Source: a virus
Lineage: Duplodnaviria; Heunggongvirae; Uroviricota; Caudoviricetes
Direction: 5' to 3' (one strand)
DNA length: 35,890 nucleotides
Virus record (IMG/VR): IMGVR_UViG_2909303794_000009
A program made the position numbers and the translations under genes. Position 1 is the first letter of the stretch; each line of letters starts with the position of its first letter. Under the pieces are notes generated by a model. It worked only from the letters and a program-made list of their open reading frames with translations, was not told the origin of the DNA and did no database searches. This document shows, piece by piece, positions 1-34,472 of this stretch.

Positions 1-585
1 CTATTCGATAATGGGTACTGTTGGCCATTCAATATCCGGTGCAGTTGTTGTATTAACACGGTTCAGCAACACCCGATATTTTTTCCAGGCTTCCAGCAAT
101 GAGGTTTCTTCCTCCGTTGCGATCTCCAGATCTACAGCATCCTGAAGTGGCGCTATATGCTCACTGGCTACCTGCATCAGGCTGTTTTTTGTTTCTTCCG
201 CCTCCCGGATCCGGAACAGTTTTTCTGCTTCCGTATCCTTCACCCAGGCTGTGCCGTTCCACTTCTGATATTCCCCTTCCGGCGATAACCAGGTGACATT
301 TTCCGGTAACGAGCCAAGTTCAGAAATAAATAACGCGTCGCCGGAAGCCACGTCATAGACGGTTTTTCCCCGATGATCTTCAACGAGATGCCACGATGCC
401 TCATCACTGTTGAAAACAGCCACAAAGCCAGCCGGAATATCTGGCGGTGCAATATCGGTACTGTTTGCTGGCAGACCTGTATGAGGCGGAATATATGCGT
501 CACCTTCACCAATAAATTCATTAGTTCCGGCCAGCAGATTATAAATTTTTATGGTCCGTGCTTGTTCACTCATTCTGAATGCCAT
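1..585 (-). CDS. tfa: Tail fiber assembly protein (lambda Tfa-like, 194 aa)
   Basis: ORF-track protein [24 protein letters not shown]... matches lambda Tfa as I recall it in length and sequence; start overlaps the stf stop by 1 nt (ATGA). Confidence 0.9.
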
Positions 586-19230: not shown

Positions 19231-22911
<3,681 letters not shown>

Positions 22912-22937
<26 letters not shown>

Positions 22938-23457
22938 TCAGCAACCCCGGTATCAGTTCATCCAGCGCGGCTGCTTTGTTCATGGCTTTGATGATATCCC
23001 GTTTCAGGAAATCAACATGTCGGTTTTCCAGTTCCGGAAAACGCCGCTGCACCGACAGGGGGATCCCGTCGAGAATACTGGCAATTTCACCTGCGATCCG
23101 CGACAGCACGAAAGTACAGAATGCGGTTTCCACCACTTCAGCGGAGTCTCTGGCATTTTTCAGCTCCTGTGCGTCGGCCTGCGCACGCGTAAGTCGATGG
23201 CGTTCGTACTCAATAGTCCCTGGCTGGAGATCTGTCTCGCTGGCCTGCCGCAGTTCTTCAACTTCCCGGCGCAGCTTTTCGTTCTCAATTTCAGCATCCC
23301 TTTCGGCATACCATCTTATAACGGCGGCAGAGTCATAAAGCACCTCATTACCCTTGCCACCGCCTCGCAGAACGGGCATTCCCTGTTCCTGCCAGTTCTG
23401 AATGGTACGGATACTCGCACCGAAAATGTCAGCCAGCTGCTTTTTGTTGACTTCCAT
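22912..23457 (-). CDS. Nu1: Terminase small subunit Nu1 (181 aa)
   Basis: MEVNKKQLADIFGASIRTIQNWQEQGMPV... wHTH N-terminus; lambda Nu1-like; first gene after cos. Confidence 0.9.
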
Positions 23458-23634: not shown

Positions 23635-23646
23635 AGGTCGCCGCCC
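23635..23646. other. cosN: 12-nt cohesive-end sequence GGGCGGCGACCT (minus-strand orientation)
   Basis: Plus strand AGGTCGCCGCCC at ~23635-23646, flanked by …CGACAGGTTACG (lambda right-end sequence) on the other side. Confidence 0.8.
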
Positions 23647-23845
23647 CGTAACCTGTCGGATCGCCGGAAAGGACCCGCAAAATGATAATAATTATCATCT
23701 GCATGTCACAACGTGCATCTACGCCATCAAACCACGTCAAATAATCAATTATGACGCAGGTATCATATTAATTGATCTGCATCAACTTAACGTAAAAACA
23801 ACTTCAGACAATACAAATCAGCGACACTGAATACGGGACAACCTC

Positions 23846-24079
23846 ATGTCAACGAAGAACAGAACCCGCAGAACAACAACCCGCAACATCCGCTTTCCTA
23901 ACCAAATGATTGAACAAATTAACATCGCTCTTGATCAAAAAGGGTCCGGGAATTTCTCAGCCTGGGTCATTGAAGCCTGCCGCCGGAGACTGTGCTCAGA
24001 AAAAAGAGTTTCTCCTGAAGCAAACAAAGAAAAGAGTGACATTACTGAATTGCTCAGAAAACAGATCAGACCAGATTGA
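23846..24079 (+). CDS. Small basic protein with ribbon-helix-helix-like N-terminal region (lambda right-end small ORF-like), 77 aa
   Basis: MSTKNRTRRTTTRNIRFPNQMIEQINIALDQKGSGNFSAWVIEACRRRL... has a strand-helix-helix pattern like Arc/CopG; AT-rich; opposite strand to the late genes. Confidence 0.55.
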   Translation: MSTKNRTRRTTTRNIRFPNQMIEQINIALDQKGSGNFSAWVIEACRRRLCSEKRVSPEANKEKSDITELLRKQIRPD

Positions 24080-24120
24080 AGCAATTTAGATAATCGTGCA
24101 GACTACGCCCCTCATATCAC

Positions 24121-24546
24121 ATGGAAGGTACTACAATGGCTCAGGTTGCCATTTTTAAACAAATATTCGATAAAGTGCGAAATAATTTAAACTATCACTG
24201 GTTTTATTCTGAACTAAAACGTCACAATGTCTCACATTACATTTACTATTTAGCCACAGAGAATATTCATCTTGTTCTTGAAAACGATAATACGGTTTTA
24301 ATAAAAGGACAGGGTAAGGTTGTAAATGTAAGATTTTCAAAAAATAAATGCCTTATAGAAGCCACCTTAAAAGGATTCAAATCAGGAGAGTTATCATTTT
24401 ACGAATACAGGAAAAATCTTGCTACAGCAGGGGTTTTCAGATGGATTACAAATATCCACGAAAACAAAAGGTATTACTATACCTTTGATAATTCATTACT
24501 CTTTACTGAGAACATTCAGAACACTACACAAATATTTCCGCACTAA
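24121..24546 (+). CDS. DUF1398-like putative envelope protein (lambda right-end ORF / YbcV-like), 141 aa
   Basis: …[38 protein letters not shown]-terminus resembles the uncharacterised lambda ORF adjacent to cos; low GC; same strand as the preceding small ORF. Confidence 0.55.
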
Positions 24547-24832
24547 ATCATAACGTCCGGTTTCTTCCGTGCCAGAACCGGACTCGCTGGCATGATGAAA
24601 TATGTGTACCCGGTAACCCCGGTGTGCATCGTTTTTGATTATTCCCACACACTCGCGCAGAAGGAGTTCCCCGTCGGGCTACGGTCTCTGTTAATACGGG
24701 AATACGGCGACGATACAGCGCATGATGTGTCAGGCTTGAATACCTTTATCCTTTAAAAGGGATATCAGTTAAGTTATCCCGTGTAGGGTATAAGCCATTA
24801 TCAAGCCCACCCGTAGATAGGCTTTGTAATGG

Positions 24833-25090
24833 CTACTTCGCTTTTGCTTCCGCTCGCTTACGCCGGCGCTCTTCTTTCCTCTCGGCTTTTGCCATGTCCA
24901 TGAATGCCTGCATGATCGAGTTCCGCATCATGTAGCTAACAAAGTGATGATTGACACAGCCGTTGAGGCGCAGCTGCTCGCCAAACTCATCCACCGAGGC
25001 CAATGCTTCCATCATGCCCTTCTCACCTTTCATGAACTCTGAGAAGTCACGCCCCGCTCTGGAGGCGCATTCAATGACACGATCACTCAT
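24833..25090 (-). CDS. Hypothetical protein (85 aa), translationally coupled to the upstream KilA-N frame
   Basis: ATG overlaps the TGA of the preceding frame (ATGA); Lys/Arg/Glu-rich C-terminus; no family recognised. Confidence 0.4.
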   Translation of the reverse strand: MSDRVIECASRAGRDFSEFMKGEKGMMEALASVDEFGEQLRLNGCVNHHFVSYMMRNSIMQAFMDMAKAERKEERRRKRAEAKAK

Positions 25091-25583
25091 CCCGGAAGCC
25101 CGGGGATCGTAATCTGCAGCTGGTTAGCCAGGGAGTTAATCTCAGCGACCAACACTGGCTTCGTATAGCGCCATGCCGCCAGCCCTTGTCCGCAGAAGCT
25201 CGCCATATCTTTTTTCTGATCAAACTCATGACACTTCATATTGAGCTGTGCACTTAAGCTGTTGCGATGCTGAAGTTCTCCGGTGAAGTAGTCATCCAGG
25301 ACTTTATAGGCTGCATATTTAAATCCGGGGTTTAGCCATGCTGCATAATCATAAGCAACAAACTTCCCGCCATATGTTCCACCGTGTACACCGCGCTCAG
25401 TAAAAACACAGATTCGTGGTTTTTCTCCAGCTCGGCTAAGAACTCTTTGGTCTGCTTGTTTCGCAGGTAGTGGTACGGAGATTCAGATTCACTTTTACCA
25501 CTGGCTTTCCACATATCAGTGAGGCAGATCATGCCATCTTCACCGATACGAATTGGTTGATTGAAGAGGGTTAATGATTTCAT
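25087..25583 (-). pseudogene. KilA-N domain protein gene split by a frameshift
   Basis: Frame A (25332..25583) MKSLTLFNQPIRIGEDGMICLTDMWKASGK... continues in a second frame as …ERGVHGGTYGGKFVAYDYAAWLNPGFKYAAYKVLDDYF… (KilA-N signature); frames switch at an A5/T5 run near 25412-25416. Confidence 0.55.
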
Positions 25584-25787: not shown

Positions 25788-26225
25788 TTATTTCAGGCAT
25801 TGCGTCCTGATGTACTCCTGCAGGTAGTTAACCTGCGCGGTTATCCTGTCGATTCCACTTCGGAGACGGTAATAATTGAGTTCAGCATCTGCTGTAAGTC
25901 TTGGGCTTTCTCCATCGCCCATGCTGCTGGCTCCGGTCTTTGACTTTGCACATGAGGCGGCGACTTGCAGCCGCTTACGCCCAGCAGAAACATCATCACG
26001 GAGACTTTCGATAGTCGCGTTAGCATCAGCAAGCTCCTTTGTATATCTGGCGTCGAGTTCTGCTACGTCACGTTGACGCTTCTGCATGTCAGCGATGATG
26101 GATGTGGCTTTGTCGCGCTGGGCTTTGTAGGCGATGGCGTTATCACGGTAATGATTAACAGCCCATAACAGGCAGACGATGATGCAGATAACCAGAGCGG
26201 AGATAATCGCGGTGACTCTGCTCAT
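25788..26225 (-). CDS. Rz: Spanin inner-membrane subunit Rz (145 aa)
   Basis: [30 protein letters not shown]... N-terminal TM helix plus coiled coil; lambda Rz-like; 4-nt overlap with R. Confidence 0.85.
25841..26032 (-). CDS. Rz1: Spanin outer-membrane lipoprotein Rz1, embedded in the +1 frame of Rz
   Basis: 63-aa nested ORF with signal/lipobox …[10 protein letters not shown] followed by a Pro-containing segment; same embedded architecture as lambda Rz/Rz1. Confidence 0.7.
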
Positions 26226-26698
26226 GCCTCAATCTCTCTGACCGTTCCGCCTGCTTCTTTGAATTTTGAAATCAGACTGTCAGCCTTATGCTCGAACTGA
26301 CCATAACCAGCGCCCGGCAATGAAGCCCAGATATTGCTGCAACGGTCGATTGCCTGACGAATATCACCGCGGTCAATCATCGGTAAAGCGCCACGCTCTT
26401 TAATCTGTTGCAATGCCACAGCGTCCTGGCTTTTCGGAGAGAAGTCTTTCAGGCCAAGCTGCTTACGATAGGCATCCCACCAACGGGAAAGAAGCTGGTA
26501 ACGTCCGGCTGCTGTTGATTTGAGTTTTGGGTTTAGCGTGACAAGTTTGCGAGGGTGATCGGAGTAATCAGTAAACAGTTCACCACCGACAATAACATCA
26601 TAACCGTGGTTACGTGTCGGTTGTCGCCCGTTATCCGTTCCTTCTGACCATGCAACCATATCCAGGAAAGCTTTACGCTGGGAATTTAGTACCTGCAT
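26222..26698 (-). CDS. R: Endolysin R (lytic transglycosylase, 158 aa)
   Basis: …[73 protein letters not shown]… is near-identical to lambda R as recalled. Confidence 0.9.
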
Positions 26699-27113: not shown

Positions 27114-28166
27114 TTATTTCCCCACCAGTTCACTTACCTCTTTCACCGTCTGATTAAACCGCTCTGACTCAAGTTCAACACCTAACGCCCGACGCCCCAG
27201 CGCCATTGCCGCTTTTATTGTGGAACCGGATCCCATAAAGAAATCAGCAACCAGATCGCCTTGTCGACTACTGGCACTGATTATTTGCCGGAGCATATCC
27301 GCAGGCTTCTCACACGGATGTTTACCCGGGTAGAACTGAACGGGTTTATGCGTCCAGACATCGGTATAAGGCACGGAAACTGATACGGAGAAATAGCGCC
27401 GGAGAGTTTTAAACTCATCCAGCAATTCAGAATATTTGCGATTCAGTGAATCATAAGATGCCACCAGCTGGTGGTGTGGTTGTTCCAGTTGTTGTTCCTG
27501 AAATTTCTCTGCCGCTATACGGGAAAACAGTGCCTGCAACTTCCGGTAGTCAGCCTCATTCGGCAACTGCCACTGACTGGCACCAAACCAGTGGGAAACC
27601 ATATTTTTCTTACCAGTGGCTTCGGCAATCTGTTTTGCCGTTATACCCAGTTCGGCACGAGCATCCCTGAAATACGAAATCAGCGGTGCCATTATGTGCT
27701 GTTTGAGTTGACTTTCTTTTGCCGCATAGCCGTCACTTTTGCCGCGATATGGTCCCTGGTAATGTTCAGCAAACAGAACGCGTTCTGTTGCGGGAAAATA
27801 TGCGCGCAGACTTTCTTTATTACACCCGTTCCATCGTCCGGACGGCTTCGCCCAGATAATATGGTTAAGAACGTTGAAACGTTCACGCATCATGATCTCG
27901 ATATCAGATGCGAGGCGATGTCCACAGAACAGGTAAAGGCTTCCGGCAGGTTTCAGCACCCGCCAGAACTGAGCCAGACAGTGGTCCAGCCACTTCAGGT
28001 AATCTTCGTCCCCTTTCCACTGATTGTCCCAACCGTTGGGTTTCACCTTGAAGTACGGCGGATCGGTAACAATCAGGTCAATGGAATCATCAGGCAGGGA
28101 CTGAATAAAATGCAGGCAATCAGCGTTGATTAAATCAACACTGTTTATTTTCACAGTATTTTTCAT
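27114..28166 (-). CDS. Orphan DNA methyltransferase (N6-adenine/N4-cytosine type, beta-class motif order), 350 aa
   Basis: N-terminal catalytic motif IV DPPY (…IDLIVTDPPYF…) and C-terminal SAM-binding motif I (…DFFMGSGST…); no adjacent restriction endonuclease gene. Confidence 0.85.
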   Translation of the reverse strand: MKNTVKINSVDLINADCLHFIQSLPDDSIDLIVTDPPYFKVKPNGWDNQWKGDEDYLKWLDHCLAQFWRVLKPAGSLYLFCGHRLASDIEIMMRERFNVLNHIIWAKPSGRWNGCNKESLRAYFPATERVLFAEHYQGPYRGKSDGYAAKESQLKQHIMAPLISYFRDARAELGITAKQIAEATGKKNMVSHWFGASQWQLPNEADYRKLQALFSRIAAEKFQEQQLEQPHHQLVASYDSLNRKYSELLDEFKTLRRYFSVSVSVPYTDVWTHKPVQFYPGKHPCEKPADMLRQIISASSRQGDLVADFFMGSGSTIKAAMALGRRALGVELESERFNQTVKEVSELVGK

Positions 28167-28315
28167 GGATCAGTAAGCGTAACTCTGGTAGGCTCACTCT
28201 GCTTTTGCGCTAAAGCAGTGGGCCGTGGTTCGCTTGTGACCAGTAAGCATGAGCGAATGGCTGGCAGGTGCTACCAACACCCACCAGCCGCCCATTTTCA
28301 CAAATTAAAAGCCCT

Positions 28316-28510
28316 TCATTGCTGAAGGCGTCTGTAACAGCCGAACTGGTAATCTGCCAGCCCCGCCATAACCAGCTGGGTCAGTATTAACTGACAGCGT
28401 TCGCGTGAAAGGTATGTGTTTTGTGCAATCTCCCCGACTGTTGCCGGTTTGCCGTTTAATTCATTAAAAACAACTTTCGCCGTTTCTGTCATATCTAGCT
28501 GTTTTAGCAT
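28316..28510 (-). CDS. Small winged-helix DNA-binding protein, FaeA/PapI-like (64 aa)
   Basis: MLKQLDMTETAKVVFNELNGKPATVGEIAQNTYLSRERCQLILTQLVMAGLADYQ… has the small-regulator pattern (…G…T..EIA…..S….R..L..L…G.) seen in PapI/FaeA-type proteins; sits directly upstream of the methyltransferase. Confidence 0.45.
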   Translation of the reverse strand: MLKQLDMTETAKVVFNELNGKPATVGEIAQNTYLSRERCQLILTQLVMAGLADYQFGCYRRLQQ

Positions 28511-28627
28511 GTCTTTTTACCTTCATGGTTAACATGACATACCAATAACTCTTGTCTAAAAAGCCAGCAAGATAAAAAGTCAGTATTCACGACCACCAGC
28601 GTGTTTACCGTACTGCACCAGGTTTAC

Positions 28628-28657
28628 AGGTACAAAAAAACCCGCTCGACGGCGGGT
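28628..28657 (-). terminator. Putative intrinsic terminator (minus-strand orientation) between the porin and the late genes
   Basis: Minus strand ACCCGCC-GTCGA-GCGGGT followed by TTTTTTT. Confidence 0.5.
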
Positions 28658-28699
28658 TTAAGCTGTGTGGCGAAGTAACCACTCTTAACAGCATAACCA

Positions 28700-29084
28700 A
28701 TTTTTTACGTACGTAAACCTCTAAACAATATTTGTGAGAATGATATCGAGTGTTCAAAACACCACCACAATCACATAAGGAAAAATAAACAAATAATCAT
28801 TAAATAATTTCCGACGTTATTTTCAGTGAATTTAAATTAAAGAGATGAATTATAGAACACTTATAAATAACAACCTTTAATATAATTTAGCTACCAAATT
28901 TATTTTCTTTCAGAGAATAGTCATGCACAGCATGCATTAGAAAAAGTTCAGATAAAAATAGAGATCTAGATCACAATTTAAATAAGAATCTAAAACTTAC
29001 ATCTTGAATTAATCACATTGATTAGATGAATATTTGTCGCGCAGGGCATCATTTTTTAATAAATGTTCAAAAAAAGGTCTCACG
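28700..29084 (+). promoter_or_regulatory. AT-rich upstream regulatory region of the porin gene
   Basis: ~380 bp of very low GC with repeated TTTA/ACAT-type motifs (e.g. ACTTACATCTTGAATTAATCACATTGATTAGATG) resembling porin promoter/OmpR-box regions; no -10/-35 assigned. Confidence 0.3.
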
Positions 29085-30167
29085 ATGAAAAAATTAACAG
29101 TGGCAATTTCTGCTGTAGCTGCATCAGTACTGATGGCGATGTCTGCTCAGGCAGCTGAAATTTATAATAAAGACAGTAACAAGCTGGATCTGTACGGGAA
29201 AGTTAATGCTAAGCACTACTTCTCCTCTAATGATGCAGATGATGGTGATACTACTTATGCCCGTCTTGGCTTCAAAGGTGAAACCCAAATCAACGATCAA
29301 CTGACTGGTTTCGGTCAGTGGGAATATGAATTCAAAGGCAACCGCGCTGAATCTCAAGGTTCCTCCAAAGATAAAACCCGTCTTGCCTTCGCTGGCCTGA
29401 AATTCGGTGACTACGGCTCCATCGATTATGGCCGTAACTACGGTGTAGCATACGATATTGGTGCATGGACCGACGTTCTGCCAGAATTCGGTGGCGATAC
29501 CTGGACCCAAACAGATGTATTCATGACTGGTCGCACCACAGGTGTTGCAACTTATCGTAACAACGACTTCTTTGGTCTGGTTGATGGCCTGAACTTTGCA
29601 GCTCAGTATCAGGGCAAAAATGACCGAAATGAAGTAACTGAAGCTAATGGCGATGGTTTCGGTTTCTCAACTACTTATGAGTATGAAGGATTCGGCGTGG
29701 GTGCAACCTATGCTAAATCTGATCGCACTAATAATCAGGTTATCCTCGGTAACAACGGTCTGAATGCTTCTGGTAAAAATGCTGAAGTATGGGCAGCTGG
29801 TCTGAAATATGATGCGAACAACATCTATCTGGCCACCACCTATTCTGAAACCCAGAACATGACTGTTTTTGGTAATAACCATATTGCCAACAAAGCACAA
29901 AACTTCGAAGCTGTTGCACAATATCAGTTCGACTTCGGCCTGCGTCCATCCGTTGCTTACCTGCATTCTAAAGGAAAAGACTTGGGTGTTTGGGGTGATC
30001 AGGACCTGGTTGAATATGTTGATGTAGGTGCAACCTATTACTTCAACAAAAATATGTCCACTTTTGTTGACTACAAAATCAACCTGATTGATAAGAGCGA
30101 TTTCACGAAAGCATCTGGCGTTGCTACCGATGATATCGTTGCTGTAGGTATGGTTTACCAGTTCTAA
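29085..30167 (+). CDS. nmpC: Outer membrane general porin, NmpC/Lc/OmpC-family (360 aa with signal peptide)
   Basis: [40 protein letters not shown]… signal peptide and mature N-terminus, C-terminal …VAVGMVYQF; the ORF track begins 17 codons earlier at an alternative start codon. Confidence 0.85.
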
Positions 30168-30182
30168 TTTGATTACTAAAAG

Positions 30183-30225
30183 ATATGTTGTGGGAGGCTT
30201 TGCCTCCCCAACATATAAGTGGCTC
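30183..30225 (-). terminator. Candidate tR'-like terminator downstream of Q (minus-strand orientation)
   Basis: Minus strand ATATGTTGGGGAGGC-AAA-GCCTCCCACAACATAT followed by CTTTT; located ~130-170 nt downstream of the Q stop, as expected for a short pR' leader. Confidence 0.3.
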
Positions 30226-30304
30226 CCTCAAGCCACTTCCTTTAGAAGCACAACCTTGCTTCTAACTATACAAACCTTCTGTTATATATTACCCTTTATT
30301 TTTG

Positions 30305-30332
30305 GGGGCGCTTCAACGCCCCATTTTTAATA
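30305..30332 (+). terminator. Putative intrinsic terminator of the porin gene
   Basis: Plus strand GGGGCG-CTTCAA-CGCCCC followed by ATTTTTAAT. Confidence 0.45.
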
Positions 30333-30355
30333 ACTTTTAGTAAATAATTGGCGTA

Positions 30356-30739
30356 TTAATTAGAGTTATTAACAACGATATCCATCTCTAACCGGATATC
30401 TAATGCCATTAACATCCCTTCAATTATGCCCTCAGCCTTTTGTAACCTTTTCCCGATATAACCATCAGAGCAGCAATGCTTACCTGCCAGTGACATGAAT
30501 GTCATACCGACTATATAATAATCTACTAATAAATCATGCAAATCGCTGTTGTTCTTTTTCAGACGGGCCATGCACCCGCAAATGATCATCGCGTCATCGT
30601 CACAACATTGCGGGCGAGATTTTACTTTTGAAGGAATTAATCCCTTAAAACCGGCGGCAATGGACGACCAGGTCACATCTTCATGATTATTAGCCGCCCA
30701 CGCTCCCCAACGCTCAAGAACCATCTGAATATCACGCAT
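30356..30739 (-). CDS. Q: Late-gene antiterminator Q, phage 82/QuuD-type (127 aa from [11 protein letters not shown] start)
   Basis: [33 protein letters not shown]… with Cys cluster (…[12 protein letters not shown]…); GGAG RBS 8 nt upstream; unlike lambda Q; the ORF track begins 5 codons earlier. Confidence 0.75.
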
Positions 30740-30821
30740 CAACTTACTCCACAAAAATCAGACCAAAACGCCAATTACAAGCAAAAATCAACAAAACAGT
30801 ATTAGTTGATTGTTATCTCTG

Positions 30822-32037: not shown

Positions 32038-32364
32038 ATGACTAAAAATACACGTTTTTCCCCCGAGGTCCGTCAACGGGCAGTTCGTATGGTTCTGGAA
32101 AGTCAGGGCGAATATGACTCTCAATGGGCGGCAATTTGTTCCATTGCCCCAAAGATTGGCTGTACACCAGAGACTCTGCGTGTGTGGGTTCGTCAGCATG
32201 AGCGGGATACCGGGAGTGGTGATGGTGGACTCACCACCGCTGAACGTCAGCGTCTGAAAGAGCTGGAACGTGAAAATCGTGAACTGCGCCGCAGTAACGA
32301 TATCCTTCGCCAGGCTTCCGCTTATTTTGCGAAGGCGGAGTTCGACCGCCTCTGGAAAAAATAA
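32038..32364 (+). CDS. IS3-family transposase OrfA (HTH, 108 aa)
   Basis: [59 protein letters not shown]… recognised as IS629-group OrfA; ends in an A-rich run (A AAA AAT AA) overlapping the orfB start. Confidence 0.85.
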
Positions 32365-33251
32365 TGCCGCTGCTGGATAAGCTGCGTGAGCAGTACGGGG
32401 TCGGACCGGTATGCAGTGAACTGCATATTGCCCCGTCAACGTATTACCACTGTCAGCAACAGCGACATCATCCTGATAAACGCAGTGCCCGTGCTCAGCG
32501 CGATGACTGGCTGAAGAGAGAGATACAGCGCGTATACGATGAAAATCATCAGGTGTACGGTGTGCGTAAAGTCTGGCGCCAGTTGTTACGCGAAGGTATC
32601 AGGGTGGCCAGATGTACAGTGGCGCGCCTCATGGCGGTTATGGGACTTGCCGGTGTTCTCCGGGGTAAAAAGGTCCGTACTACCGTCAGCCGGAAAGCCG
32701 TTTCCGCAGGCGACCGCGTAAACCGTCAGTTCGTGGCAGAACGTCCTGACCAGCTGTGGGTGGCTGATTTTACTTACGTCAGCACATGGCAGGGCTTCGT
32801 CTATGTGGCGTTCATCATTGATGTGTTTGCCGGATGTATCGTGGGGTGGCGAGTCTCATCGTCTATGGAAACGACATTCGTGCTGGATGCACTGGAGCAG
32901 GCGTTGTGGGCCCGTCGGCCGTCCGGCACAGTCCATCACAGTGATAAAGGTTCTCAGTATGTATCACTGGCCTATACGGAGCGACTAAAAGAAGCAAAAC
33001 TGCTGGCATCAACAGGGAGTACAGGTGACTCGTATGACAACGCGATGGCGGAGAGCATCAATGGTCTTTACAAAGCGGAGGTAATACACCGTAAGAGCTG
33101 GAAAAACCGTGCAGAAGTGGAACTGGCCACACTCACGTGGGTGGACTGGTATAACAATCGACGATTGCTGGGAAGGCTGGGTCATATCCCTCCGGCAGAA
33201 GCAGAAAAAGCTTATTATGCTTCCATCAGAAACGATGATCTGGCAGCCTGA
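32364..33251 (+). CDS. IS3-family transposase OrfB (DDE integrase core, 295 aa)
   Basis: …LWVADFTYVSTWQGFVYVAFIIDVFAGCIVGW…HSDKGSQYVS…DNAMAESINGLYKAEVI… DDE-type catalytic core. Confidence 0.85.
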   Translation: MPLLDKLREQYGVGPVCSELHIAPSTYYHCQQQRHHPDKRSARAQRDDWLKREIQRVYDENHQVYGVRKVWRQLLREGIRVARCTVARLMAVMGLAGVLRGKKVRTTVSRKAVSAGDRVNRQFVAERPDQLWVADFTYVSTWQGFVYVAFIIDVFAGCIVGWRVSSSMETTFVLDALEQALWARRPSGTVHHSDKGSQYVSLAYTERLKEAKLLASTGSTGDSYDNAMAESINGLYKAEVIHRKSWKNRAEVELATLTWVDWYNNRRLLGRLGHIPPAEAEKAYYASIRNDDLAA

Positions 33252-33295
33252 GTTCACAGATAAAACACTCTCCAGGAAAACCGGGGCGGTTCATA

Positions 33296-33423
33296 TTCCC
33301 TCCTCCGGTTAAGGATGGAAGAGAGTATCTGTTCCACGAATCAGCGGTAAAGGTTGACTTAAATCGACCAGTAACAGGTAGCCTTTTGAAGAGGATCAGA
33401 AATGGGAAGAAGGCGAAGTCATG
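33296..33423 (+). pseudogene. xis: Excisionase xis, 5'-truncated remnant (C-terminal ~42 codons only)
   Basis: Frame immediately after the IS right end reads FPPPVKDGREYLFHESAVKVDLNRPVTGSLLKRIRNGKKAKS*, the lambda Xis C-terminus, with its stop overlapping the int start; the N-terminal ~30 codons are absent. Confidence 0.7.
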
Positions 33424-34472
33424 AGCGCCGGGATTTACCCCCTAACCTTTATATAAGAAACAATGGATATTACTGCTACAGGGACCCAAGGACGGGTAAA
33501 GAGTTTGGATTAGGCCGAGACAGGCGAATCGCAATCACTGAAGCTATACAGGCCAACATTGAGTTATTTTCAGGACACAAACACAAGCCTCTGACAGCGA
33601 GAATCAACAGTGATAATTCCGTTACGTTACATTCATGGCTTGATCGCTACGAAAAAATCCTGGCCAGCAGAGGAATCAAGCAGAAGACACTCATAAATTA
33701 CATGAGCAAAATTAAAGCAATAAGGAGGGGTCTGCCTGATGCTCCACTTGAAGACATCACCACAAAAGAAATTGCGGCAATGCTCAATGGATACATAGAC
33801 GAGGGCAAGGCGGCATCAGCCAAGTTAATCAGATCAACACTGAGCGATGCATTCCGAGAGGCTATAGCTGAAGGCCATATAACAACAAACCCGGTCGCAG
33901 CCACTCGCGCTGCAAAATCAGAGGTAAGGAGATCAAGACTTACGGCTGACGAATACCTGAAAATTTATCAAGCAGCAGAATCATCACCATGTTGGCTTAG
34001 ACTTGCAATGGAACTGGCTGTTGTTACCGGGCAGCGAGTTGGTGATTTATGCGAAATGAAGTGGTCTGATATCGTAGATGGATATCTTTATGTCGAGCAA
34101 AGCAAAACAGGCGTAAAAATTGCCATCCCAACAACATTGCATGTTGATGCTCTCGGGATATCAATGAAGGAAACACTTGATAAATGCAAAAAGATTCTTG
34201 GCGGAGAAACCATAATTGCATCTACTCGTCGTGAACCGCTTTCATCCGGCACAGTATCAAGGTATTTTATGCGCGCACGAAAAGCATCAGGTCTCTCCTT
34301 CGAAGGGGATCCGCCAACCTTTCACGAGTTGCGCAGTTTGTCTGCAAGACTCTATGAGAAGCAGATAAGCGATAAATTTGCTCAACATCTTCTCGGGCAT
34401 AAGTCGGACACCATGGCATCACAGTATCGTGATGACAGAGGCAGGGAGTGGGACAAAATTGAAATCAAATAA
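33402..34472 (+). CDS. int: Integrase (tyrosine recombinase), lambda Int (356 aa)
   Basis: MGRRRSHERRDLPPNLYIRNNGYYCYRDPRTGKEFGLGRDRRIAITEAIQANIELF… essentially identical to lambda Int as recalled; followed by the att site. Confidence 0.95.
   Translation: MGRRRSHERRDLPPNLYIRNNGYYCYRDPRTGKEFGLGRDRRIAITEAIQANIELFSGHKHKPLTARINSDNSVTLHSWLDRYEKILASRGIKQKTLINYMSKIKAIRRGLPDAPLEDITTKEIAAMLNGYIDEGKAASAKLIRSTLSDAFREAIAEGHITTNPVAATRAAKSEVRRSRLTADEYLKIYQAAESSPCWLRLAMELAVVTGQRVGDLCEMKWSDIVDGYLYVEQSKTGVKIAIPTTLHVDALGISMKETLDKCKKILGGETIIASTRREPLSSGTVSRYFMRARKASGLSFEGDPPTFHELRSLSARLYEKQISDKFAQHLLGHKSDTMASQYRDDRGREWDKIEIK

Follow-up and report, generated by a model that had tools for sequence, protein, structure and literature searches.

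The two small genes beside the cos site of this lambdoid prophage, here termed ORF1 and ORF2, are best explained as two separately mobile accessory genes and not as one obligate two-gene system, a reading to which we assign a probability of about 0.55. The gene pair itself is already known: the window (the whole stretch of 35,890 nucleotides that was analysed) carries a new allele of a named and widespread pair, arranged in the layout of the Qin prophage. The reading is carried by family membership, purifying selection, the separate occurrence of the two genes and the boundaries of a cassette around ORF2. We infer, in addition, that ORF1 binds DNA and that ORF2 is transcribed independently, as we do any advantage that the host may gain.

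The late operon of the window lies on the minus strand, and ORF1 and ORF2 lie on the plus strand. The features of the locus are as follows.

21012-22937, minus strand: late gene A (terminase)
22912-23457, minus strand: late gene Nu1
23635-23646, minus strand: cosN cohesive-end sequence (reverse complement of GGGCGGCGACCT), a lambda-type packaging site
23670-23676, minus strand: cosQ, AGGACCC; the homologous position is annotated as cosQ in phage 434
23682-23698, no strand: perfect 8-1-8 palindrome ATGATAATAATTATCAT in the spacer between cos and ORF1
23846-24079, plus strand: ORF1, 77 aa, YlcI/YnfO family (DUF3950), from Pfam and NCBIfam matches
24060-24076, no strand: left edge of the DUF1398 cassette, AACAGATCAGACCAGAT, from the alignment of the window, Qin, lambda and Tritos
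24136-24546, plus strand: ORF2, 136 aa (141 aa if the start is at 24121), DUF1398, YdfO/YbcV/lambdap78 family
24602-24640, plus strand: terminator-like hairpin followed by UUUUU, about 60 nt past the ORF2 stop codon
25788-26225, minus strand: late gene Rz
26222-26698, minus strand: late gene R

According to the alignment, the cos segment is the same in sequence in the window, lambda, DLP12 and Qin. It includes, at 23635-23646, the reverse complement of GGGCGGCGACCT, which we take to be the lambda cohesive end, and this places the start of ORF1 200 bp from the cos nick. The original prediction had set both genes opposite to the late operon, near cos and in the neighbourhood where lambda keeps bor, and it was right on each count, since both ORFs are on the plus strand, about 200 bp away from cos, and lie between cos and Rz as they do in lambda and DLP12. 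The markedly lower GC that it had ascribed to both genes is true of ORF2 (0.317), while ORF1 is only mildly low (0.44), the whole window having 0.528; a GC of 0.33 or less is seen in only about 1% of 426-nt windows. In the spacer, the arms of the palindrome ATGATAATAATTATCAT are kept in lambda and Qin and its central base is variable, as indicated by the alignment. This palindrome overlaps a promoter-like match on the minus strand, directed at cos and Nu1, and is absent near the Stx-phage copy of ORF1. Neither ybcW nor bor is present in the window; their place is taken by two genes on the late strand, one encoding 85 aa and the other a KilA-N gene.

What had escaped the original prediction is the identity of the genes, which are lambda's own and are also known as ynfO/ydfO and ylcI/ybcV. 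A 1.5-kb segment containing both has an identity of 100% with E. coli D217-5 and of 98.9% with phage PhiR49_1, and it matches DNA in 4887 of the 5426 complete E. coli genomes. The pair adjoins cos in lambda, DLP12, Qin and PhiR49_1. In lambda, the ylcI-like ORF (195 nt) is missing from the original record, J02459, and the DUF1398 gene is lambdap78, labelled 'putative envelope protein'. E. coli K-12 holds both layouts, with ylcI-ybcW-ybcV-borD in DLP12 and ynfO-ydfO in Qin.

The likeness of the window to the ynfO-ydfO locus of Qin concerns the gene families, their order, orientation and spacing, and their position beside the Nu1 homologue nohA; ORF1 is indeed 96% identical to Qin ynfO. The two loci differ in frame: in Qin, a single frame runs through ynfO and the upstream MEG start of ydfO, interrupted by a TGA, whereas a 1-nt deletion in the window puts ORF1 and ORF2 out of frame. 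With lambda and DLP12, the window shares the location of both genes between cos and Rz on the strand opposite to late transcription, the core of a ribbon-helix-helix (RHH) protein, with codons 1-49 nearly identical to those of ORF1, and a DUF1398 protein 76-78% identical to ORF2. By contrast, the lambda homologue of ORF1 is short (64 aa) and has a different tail, and lambda has an opposing gene, lambdap79/ybcW, between the pair and bor downstream of it, both of which the window lacks. The gene lambdap79/ybcW has been reported to activate the Vulcan defence system, and a 2026 preprint described the escape of lambda from this defence by loss of lambdap79, probably via recombination with Qin. A lambda-Qin recombinant devoid of lambdap79 would have the layout seen in the window.

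ORF1 and ORF2 differ from the surrounding operon in both base composition and orientation, as morons do. They resemble the bor and lom morons in their opposite strand or separate transcription within the late region, in their deviating base composition, in the shared neighbourhood and in being dispensable for lytic growth, as far as the lambda homologue of ORF2 is concerned. They differ from them in that bor and lom encode known outer-membrane proteins expressed in the lysogen. The genes listed as expressed from lambda lysogens are only cI, rexAB, lom and bor (PMC7067206).

ORF1 is a member of the YlcI/YnfO family, with 74.8 bits against Pfam DUF3950 (cut-off 25) and 35.7 bits against the NCBIfam YlcI/YnfO profile NF041551 (cut-off 30). 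Its residues ~14-50 make up the RHH core and residues 50-77 a variable, 'Qin-type' tail, and a mosaic breakpoint falls just after the core in the alignments. Codons 1-49 gave a dN/dS of 0.06 against the Stx-phage copy (dS 0.77) and, judged by these substitutions, ORF1 is under purifying selection. In the AlphaFold model, built from 20 homologues, the core reached a pLDDT of 73-84 and two helices (19-32 and 37-55) are separated by the turn G33-S-G-N36, followed by F-S-A-W, which is the arrangement of RHH proteins, in which a short turn with a Gly joins the helices and the second helix is capped by Ser, Thr or Asn; the NFSAW motif is nearly invariant among the 20 homologues. Residues 14-18 (NIRFP), at which RHH proteins pair their strands, form an extended coil in this model of a monomer, and I15, R16 and F17 vary little or not at all among the homologues.

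When the ORF1 model was submitted to Foldseek, RHH proteins constituted most of the top 50 matches, including StnY/CopG, Arc, ParD2, the MazE9 N-terminal domain, CopA, NikR, AmrZ, MatP, TacA and AtaR. All had E values of at least 0.9, and the lack of an individually significant match is expected for a domain of only ~40 residues. Superposition on Arc gave an rmsd of 2.0-3.2 Å across ~40 residues, and the target-normalised TM-scores of 0.57-0.62 for Arc, StnY and CopA were in line with a similar fold. A profile search of PDB sequences also matched ORF1 to an RHH chain of the CopG family, correctly in register, with a best E of 0.6. The resemblance to Arc and CopG that had first been read from the letters is thus supported by the AlphaFold model and by the Foldseek ranking, and on this predicted structure we accept an RHH fold for ORF1; we infer that the protein would dimerise and bind DNA. 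It has in common with the Arc, Mnt and CopG repressors this predicted ~40-residue strand-helix-turn-helix core and a small, phage-borne gene, but it differs from them in showing no significant sequence similarity. An operator motif common to the lambda-type and Stx-type contexts of ORF1, and to those of distant homologues, was searched for and not found. GGT-N3-ACC was rejected as a candidate operator because such a pattern often arises by chance: the window contains 12 matches where 7 were expected.

The assignment of ORF2 to DUF1398 was correct: it scored 147 bits against Pfam PF07166 (cut-off 22), covering 119 of the 119 profile positions, and matched the PDB entry 2HH8 (E. coli YdfO) with E = 1.4e-69 over residues 1-140. 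It is ~80% identical to YdfO over the residues aligned with 2HH8, and ~75-80% identical to the Qin copy. The protein had also been described as uncharacterised, a description that overlooked that the family already has a solved structure, namely 2HH8. The start at 24136 has a ribosome-binding site before it (GGAAGG-N7-ATG) and is the one used by RefSeq for the identical gene of E. coli D217-5; ORF2 therefore probably begins at 24136 rather than at 24121. The dN/dS values of 0.22-0.32 against the Qin and lambda copies indicate that ORF2, too, is under purifying selection. With 22 close homologues as input, AlphaFold modelled ORF2 only poorly (pLDDT 51), and the fold search matched only 2HH8, so that structure prediction, which had been suggested for both proteins and which ranked the ORF1 core with RHH folds, provided no functional lead from distant folds for ORF2. 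In K-12, ydfO was reported to be induced by an ionic liquid. The oxidative-stress resistance attributed to over-expression of YdfO (PMC4077768) was discarded, since it traces to a paper on YfdO, another gene.

Across all deposited phage genomes, 155 records contained a relative of ORF1 and 43 a relative of ORF2. Stx-converting phages have the ORF1 gene but no ORF2; it is antisense there as well and immediately adjoins the packaging genes. In Stx2a_WGPS8, for instance, it has its own canonical terminator and lies next to an HNH-TerS-TerL packaging module. Phage 434 has the ORF1 gene and then directly bor, with no ORF2. DUF1398 is found without ORF1 in phage Tritos (L126), in Salmonella and Klebsiella, and in the chromosomal gene ycgX (46% identity), located beside bluR and matched in many E. 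coli genomes by a distant-mode search. The genome-collection scan for DUF1398 reached Escherichia and Shigella, plus many lambda-contaminated assemblies. Distant DUF3950 genes occupy unrelated chromosomal settings, such as a cytochrome bd operon or a site between fimbrial and hsdM genes, and in lambda itself ~650 bp and an opposing gene separate the pair. DUF1398 was located downstream of the ORF1 gene at 87 of 88 loci in a sample of viral contigs, a co-occurrence that is overstated because the sample held only near-identical loci and that was corrected by the phage-database searches. An apparent DUF3950-DUF1398 fusion, P0133 (a cluster of 761 member sequences), was rejected as a gene-calling artefact in which an in-frame TGA of the contigs had been read as Trp; judged by its protein sequence, in which a W likewise stands in place of the stop, P0134 is a probable further case.

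ORF2 moreover has edges of its own. When the window is aligned with Qin, lambda and Tritos, homologous sequence sets in ~75 nt before the DUF1398 start codon, and the conserved 5' flank begins at the palindrome GGTCAGACC; in the Qin layout, ORF1 consequently draws its last codons from this flank of the ORF2 cassette. The palindrome at this edge is the sequence of the PdhR site detected by gSELEX in DLP12 and Qin, and ybcV mRNA was 10-fold lower in a pdhR mutant (PMC7660256). It is intact in Qin (GGTCAGACC) but changed at one base in the window (GATCAGACC): AACAGATCAGACCAGAT is a one-base variant of the PdhR-bound AACAGGTCAGACCAGAT, in which a GGT half-site has become GAT. As this half-site is broken, the regulation described in K-12 may not transfer to the window. 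At the other end, the terminator-like hairpin (-13.3 kcal/mol, z = -3.5) was not called by the scan of the window; a homologous hairpin follows lambdap78 in lambda (L003 4265-4290), and none is kept in the Stx-type sequence. Between ORF1 and ORF2, the window has a gap of 41-56 bp without a terminator and, because nothing separates them, the two genes are probably co-transcribed there. A convincing sigma-70 promoter upstream of ORF1 was sought and not found. The rise of more than 1000-fold in ybcV and ybcW on expression of T4 MotB was set aside as evidence of H-NS silencing, since lambda S and R rise too, and it probably reflects late read-through. Lastly, lambda can do without its homologue of ORF2: the plating efficiency was 1.3-1.9 when lambdap78 was targeted by CRISPRi (PMC10695390), and lambda recombinants that had acquired ybcV::kan from DLP12 grow and lysogenise (PMC3945230).

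The suggestion that ORF1 and ORF2 constitute a regulator/effector pair was thus not borne out, given that the genes occur separately, that they are ~650 bp apart in lambda, that ORF2 has a conserved 5' flank of its own and that neither a defence model in PADLOC-DB nor a toxin family in Pfam or NCBIfam was matched. The form of this idea that we consider merely unlikely is a true operon in which ORF1 binds its own promoter, or the palindrome before ORF2, and so controls expression of the prophage DUF1398 gene. The common orientation, the short terminator-free gap, the adjacency of the genes in all Qin-type loci examined and the palindrome exactly at their junction all speak for such an operon, and RHH proteins commonly autoregulate. 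However, ORF1 is found without ORF2 in more than 100 phage records and ORF2 also occurs without ORF1, the lambda arrangement interposes an opposing gene, the junction palindrome is already explained by PdhR binding and is mutated in the window, and GGT-N3-ACC arises readily by chance. A type II toxin-antitoxin system, with ORF1 as the RHH antitoxin and ORF2 as a DUF1398 toxin, appears very improbable. Its appeal comes from the Qin-type gene order, with a small RHH gene first, a larger gene second and a short spacing, as in ParD/ParE or CopG-type systems, from an RHH core with a variable C-terminal tail, a build also known from systems with a HicB C-terminal domain, and from a weak PHROG match to a HicB-like family (E = 0.007). 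Yet ORF2 matches only DUF1398 above threshold, and no toxin family in Pfam or NCBIfam; PADLOC-DB gave no family for ORF1 and only a chance-level match for ORF2 (E = 0.025). In contrast with ParD/ParE and CopG-type systems, ORF2 is thus no recognised toxin and the genes are apart in many genomes: the counts of 155 and 43 are not those of an inseparable pair, DUF1398 stands as an orphan in ycgX and in Tritos, and ORF1 is alone in most of the phages that have it. The lambda-type tail of ORF1 comprises only ~14 residues, with DUF1398 not adjacent, and the artefactual nature of P0133 removes the evidence from gene fusion. Moreover, YdfO was produced alone for the NMR structure 2HH8, which suggests that it is not strongly toxic.

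Database names offer another explanation, to which we give hardly any credence, namely that ORF2 is a virion protein. The name 'head protein' is used in PHROG 413 and in several RefSeq phage records, and 'putative envelope protein' in older records, but an experimental basis for these names was sought and none was found; besides, ORF2 is transcribed opposite to the late operon, its homologue is dispensable for lambda plaques and lysogenisation, and chromosomal paralogues exist outside prophages. It is also doubtful that ORF1 acts on DNA packaging or on the interplay with phage satellites, for example near packaging genes or at satellite operators, rather than on ORF2, even though several observations point in this direction. 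The ORF1 gene is always directly beside a packaging module, whether lambda Nu1/A or HNH-TerS-TerL, and even beside a Nu1 that is only 37% identical (L099). Satellites encode DUF3950 proteins in the position of a repressor: in L147-L149 and L090, the DUF3950 gene takes the place of the switch repressor, divergent from an operon of primase, TerS and capsid genes, and the control region of L147 contains two perfect TGGTACGTACCA palindromes 33 bp apart, the second of which abuts the ATG of the DUF3950 gene. A second satellite protein is a fusion of DUF3950 with the DNA-binding domain of a terminase small subunit, a domain that shares 66% identity with the Stx-phage TerS over residues 2-54 of the latter and matches Pfam Terminase_2 with E = 1.6e-11. 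The L147 satellite even lies within a prophage terS, and the DUF3950 gene of that prophage is its neighbour. By analogy, this satellite context supports a repressor role for the DUF3950 family. Against an action on packaging, Stx phages have an HNH gene between the ORF1 gene and cos, no DNA motif is common to the Stx-type and lambda-type contexts, other DUF3950 genes are found in unrelated chromosomal settings, and we know of no ORF beyond cosQ reported as needed for lambda packaging. A more specific version, somewhat less probable still, is that phage ORF1 takes part in phage-satellite conflict or packaging control and not in the regulation of DUF1398; it stems from the fact that DUF3950 is shared with a satellite switch repressor, one form of which is fused to TerS. 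If true, ORF1 could occupy satellite operators or be sensed by satellites.

From a mechanistic point of view, two separately mobile accessory genes would share the slot between cos and the lysis genes, antisense to late transcription. ORF1 would be a near-constant, separately transcribed gene at the lysis/packaging junction of lambdoid phages, irrespective of the type of terminase. Arc and CopG suggest how it may act: by dimerising, inserting a two-stranded beta-ribbon (residues ~13-18, RNIRFP) into the major groove of DNA and serving as a repressor or autoregulator. ORF2 would be a stand-alone DUF1398 cassette inserted downstream of ORF1, with its own putative 5' control region from the PdhR-bound palindrome onward, its own ribosome-binding site and a terminator-like hairpin at its end. 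Presumably not needed for phage growth or lysogenisation, it would most likely be of use, in certain metabolic states, to the lysogen or the host cell.

Work on the two genes is accordingly best kept separate, and little is to be expected from a toxin-antitoxin screen. For ORF1, the most promising angle is that of a DNA-binding protein tied to the lysis/packaging junction, and for ORF2 that of a PdhR-linked, host-regulated cargo gene. The pair is among the few lambda genes still without a function and, as its segment matches DNA in most complete E. coli genomes, any function found for it would apply very widely.

At the junction of ORF1 (YlcI/YnfO family) and ORF2 (DUF1398, YdfO family), the window carries a variant of the site bound by the host regulator PdhR in the Qin and DLP12 prophages of E. 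coli K-12, and a second palindrome lies near cosQ:
23682-23709: perfect 17-bp palindrome and promoter-like match, just past cosQ
24060-24076: PdhR-type palindrome, a one-base variant of the Qin/DLP12 site

The PdhR-bound palindrome indeed reads GGTCAGACC in Qin and DLP12 and GATCAGACC in both the window and E. coli D217-5, while GGT-N3-ACC is retained in that of phage PhiR49_1. PdhR regulation as described in K-12 may not be transferable to the window allele. The palindrome beyond cosQ, ATGATAATAATTATCAT, which is similar to a Fur-box hexamer pair, is overlapped by a promoter-like match on the minus strand (GTGACA-16-TATCAT, 10/12), directed toward cos and Nu1.

In alleles of the Qin type, a single TGA codon is all that separates ynfO from the upstream MEG start of ydfO, which lies in the same frame (window 24076-24136; compared locus L008, 4985-5050); in the window, this frame is broken by a 1-nt deletion. 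The 233-aa ynfO-ydfO fusion (protein cluster P0133, 761 member sequences) was rejected as a false product of gene calling, caused by the application of a TGA=Trp code. In several databases DUF1398 is named "head protein" or "putative envelope protein" (PHROG 413; RefSeq NC_001416, NC_019711, and NC_049953), names for which no supporting evidence was found and which are opposed by the gene strand, dispensability and chromosomal paralogues. Increased oxidative-stress resistance upon YdfO over-expression was reported (PMC4077768, citing PMC3105296), a claim that confuses YdfO with YfdO of prophage CPS-53; ydfO is not mentioned in PMC3105296. Furthermore, lambda DNA was found in many public assemblies of unrelated organisms, including Pseudomonas, Kitasatospora, Flavobacterium, Synechocystis, and Staphylococcus (L105-L133; plasmid matches H160-H170), as contigs of ~3.5 kb or ~48.5 kb, some deposited as "plasmids." These most likely correspond to the lambda control DNA of sequencing kits. 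The ~3.5-kb piece spans exactly the ORF1/ORF2 region, so that the protein-database clusters of both genes are inflated and distorted.

DUF3950 genes were also found in a phage satellite (L147, CP027459.1 3713563-3725925; similarly L148, L149, and L090), whose genes include those for an integrase, a D5-type primase, a TerS of its own and a capsid protein, together with two DUF3950 genes, one of which is a fusion with a TerS-like DNA-binding domain. Paired TGGTACGTACCA putative operators are also present. This satellite appears to be inserted within terS of a Stx-like prophage, whose TerS is shortened to 61 aa.

The rest of the prophage includes the following features, of which those past the lysis genes fall within 27114-30754 and 32038-34472:
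25087-25583, minus strand: KilA-N domain gene, disrupted
27114-28166, minus strand: DNA methylase, past the lysis genes
past the lysis genes: AT-rich gap (GC down to 0.27 near 28670)
29034-30167, plus (lysogenic) strand: porin gene
30356-30754, minus strand: Q, after the porin gene
32319-32435: ALIL frameshift pseudoknot of an IS3-family element, soon after Q
33402-34472, plus strand: lambda-type integrase, soon after Q

The KilA-N domain gene, intact (165 aa) in D217-5 and PhiR49_1, has undergone a 1-bp deletion near 25407 in the window (GTAAAAA-CACAG, versus GTAAAAACCACAG), so that only an 83-aa N-terminal ORF and fragments of it are left. At the tail-fibre end, an Rfam IS009 RNA match was observed (225 bits, 44-242, minus strand). 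Most of the early region may be absent; if so, this would point to a defective prophage.
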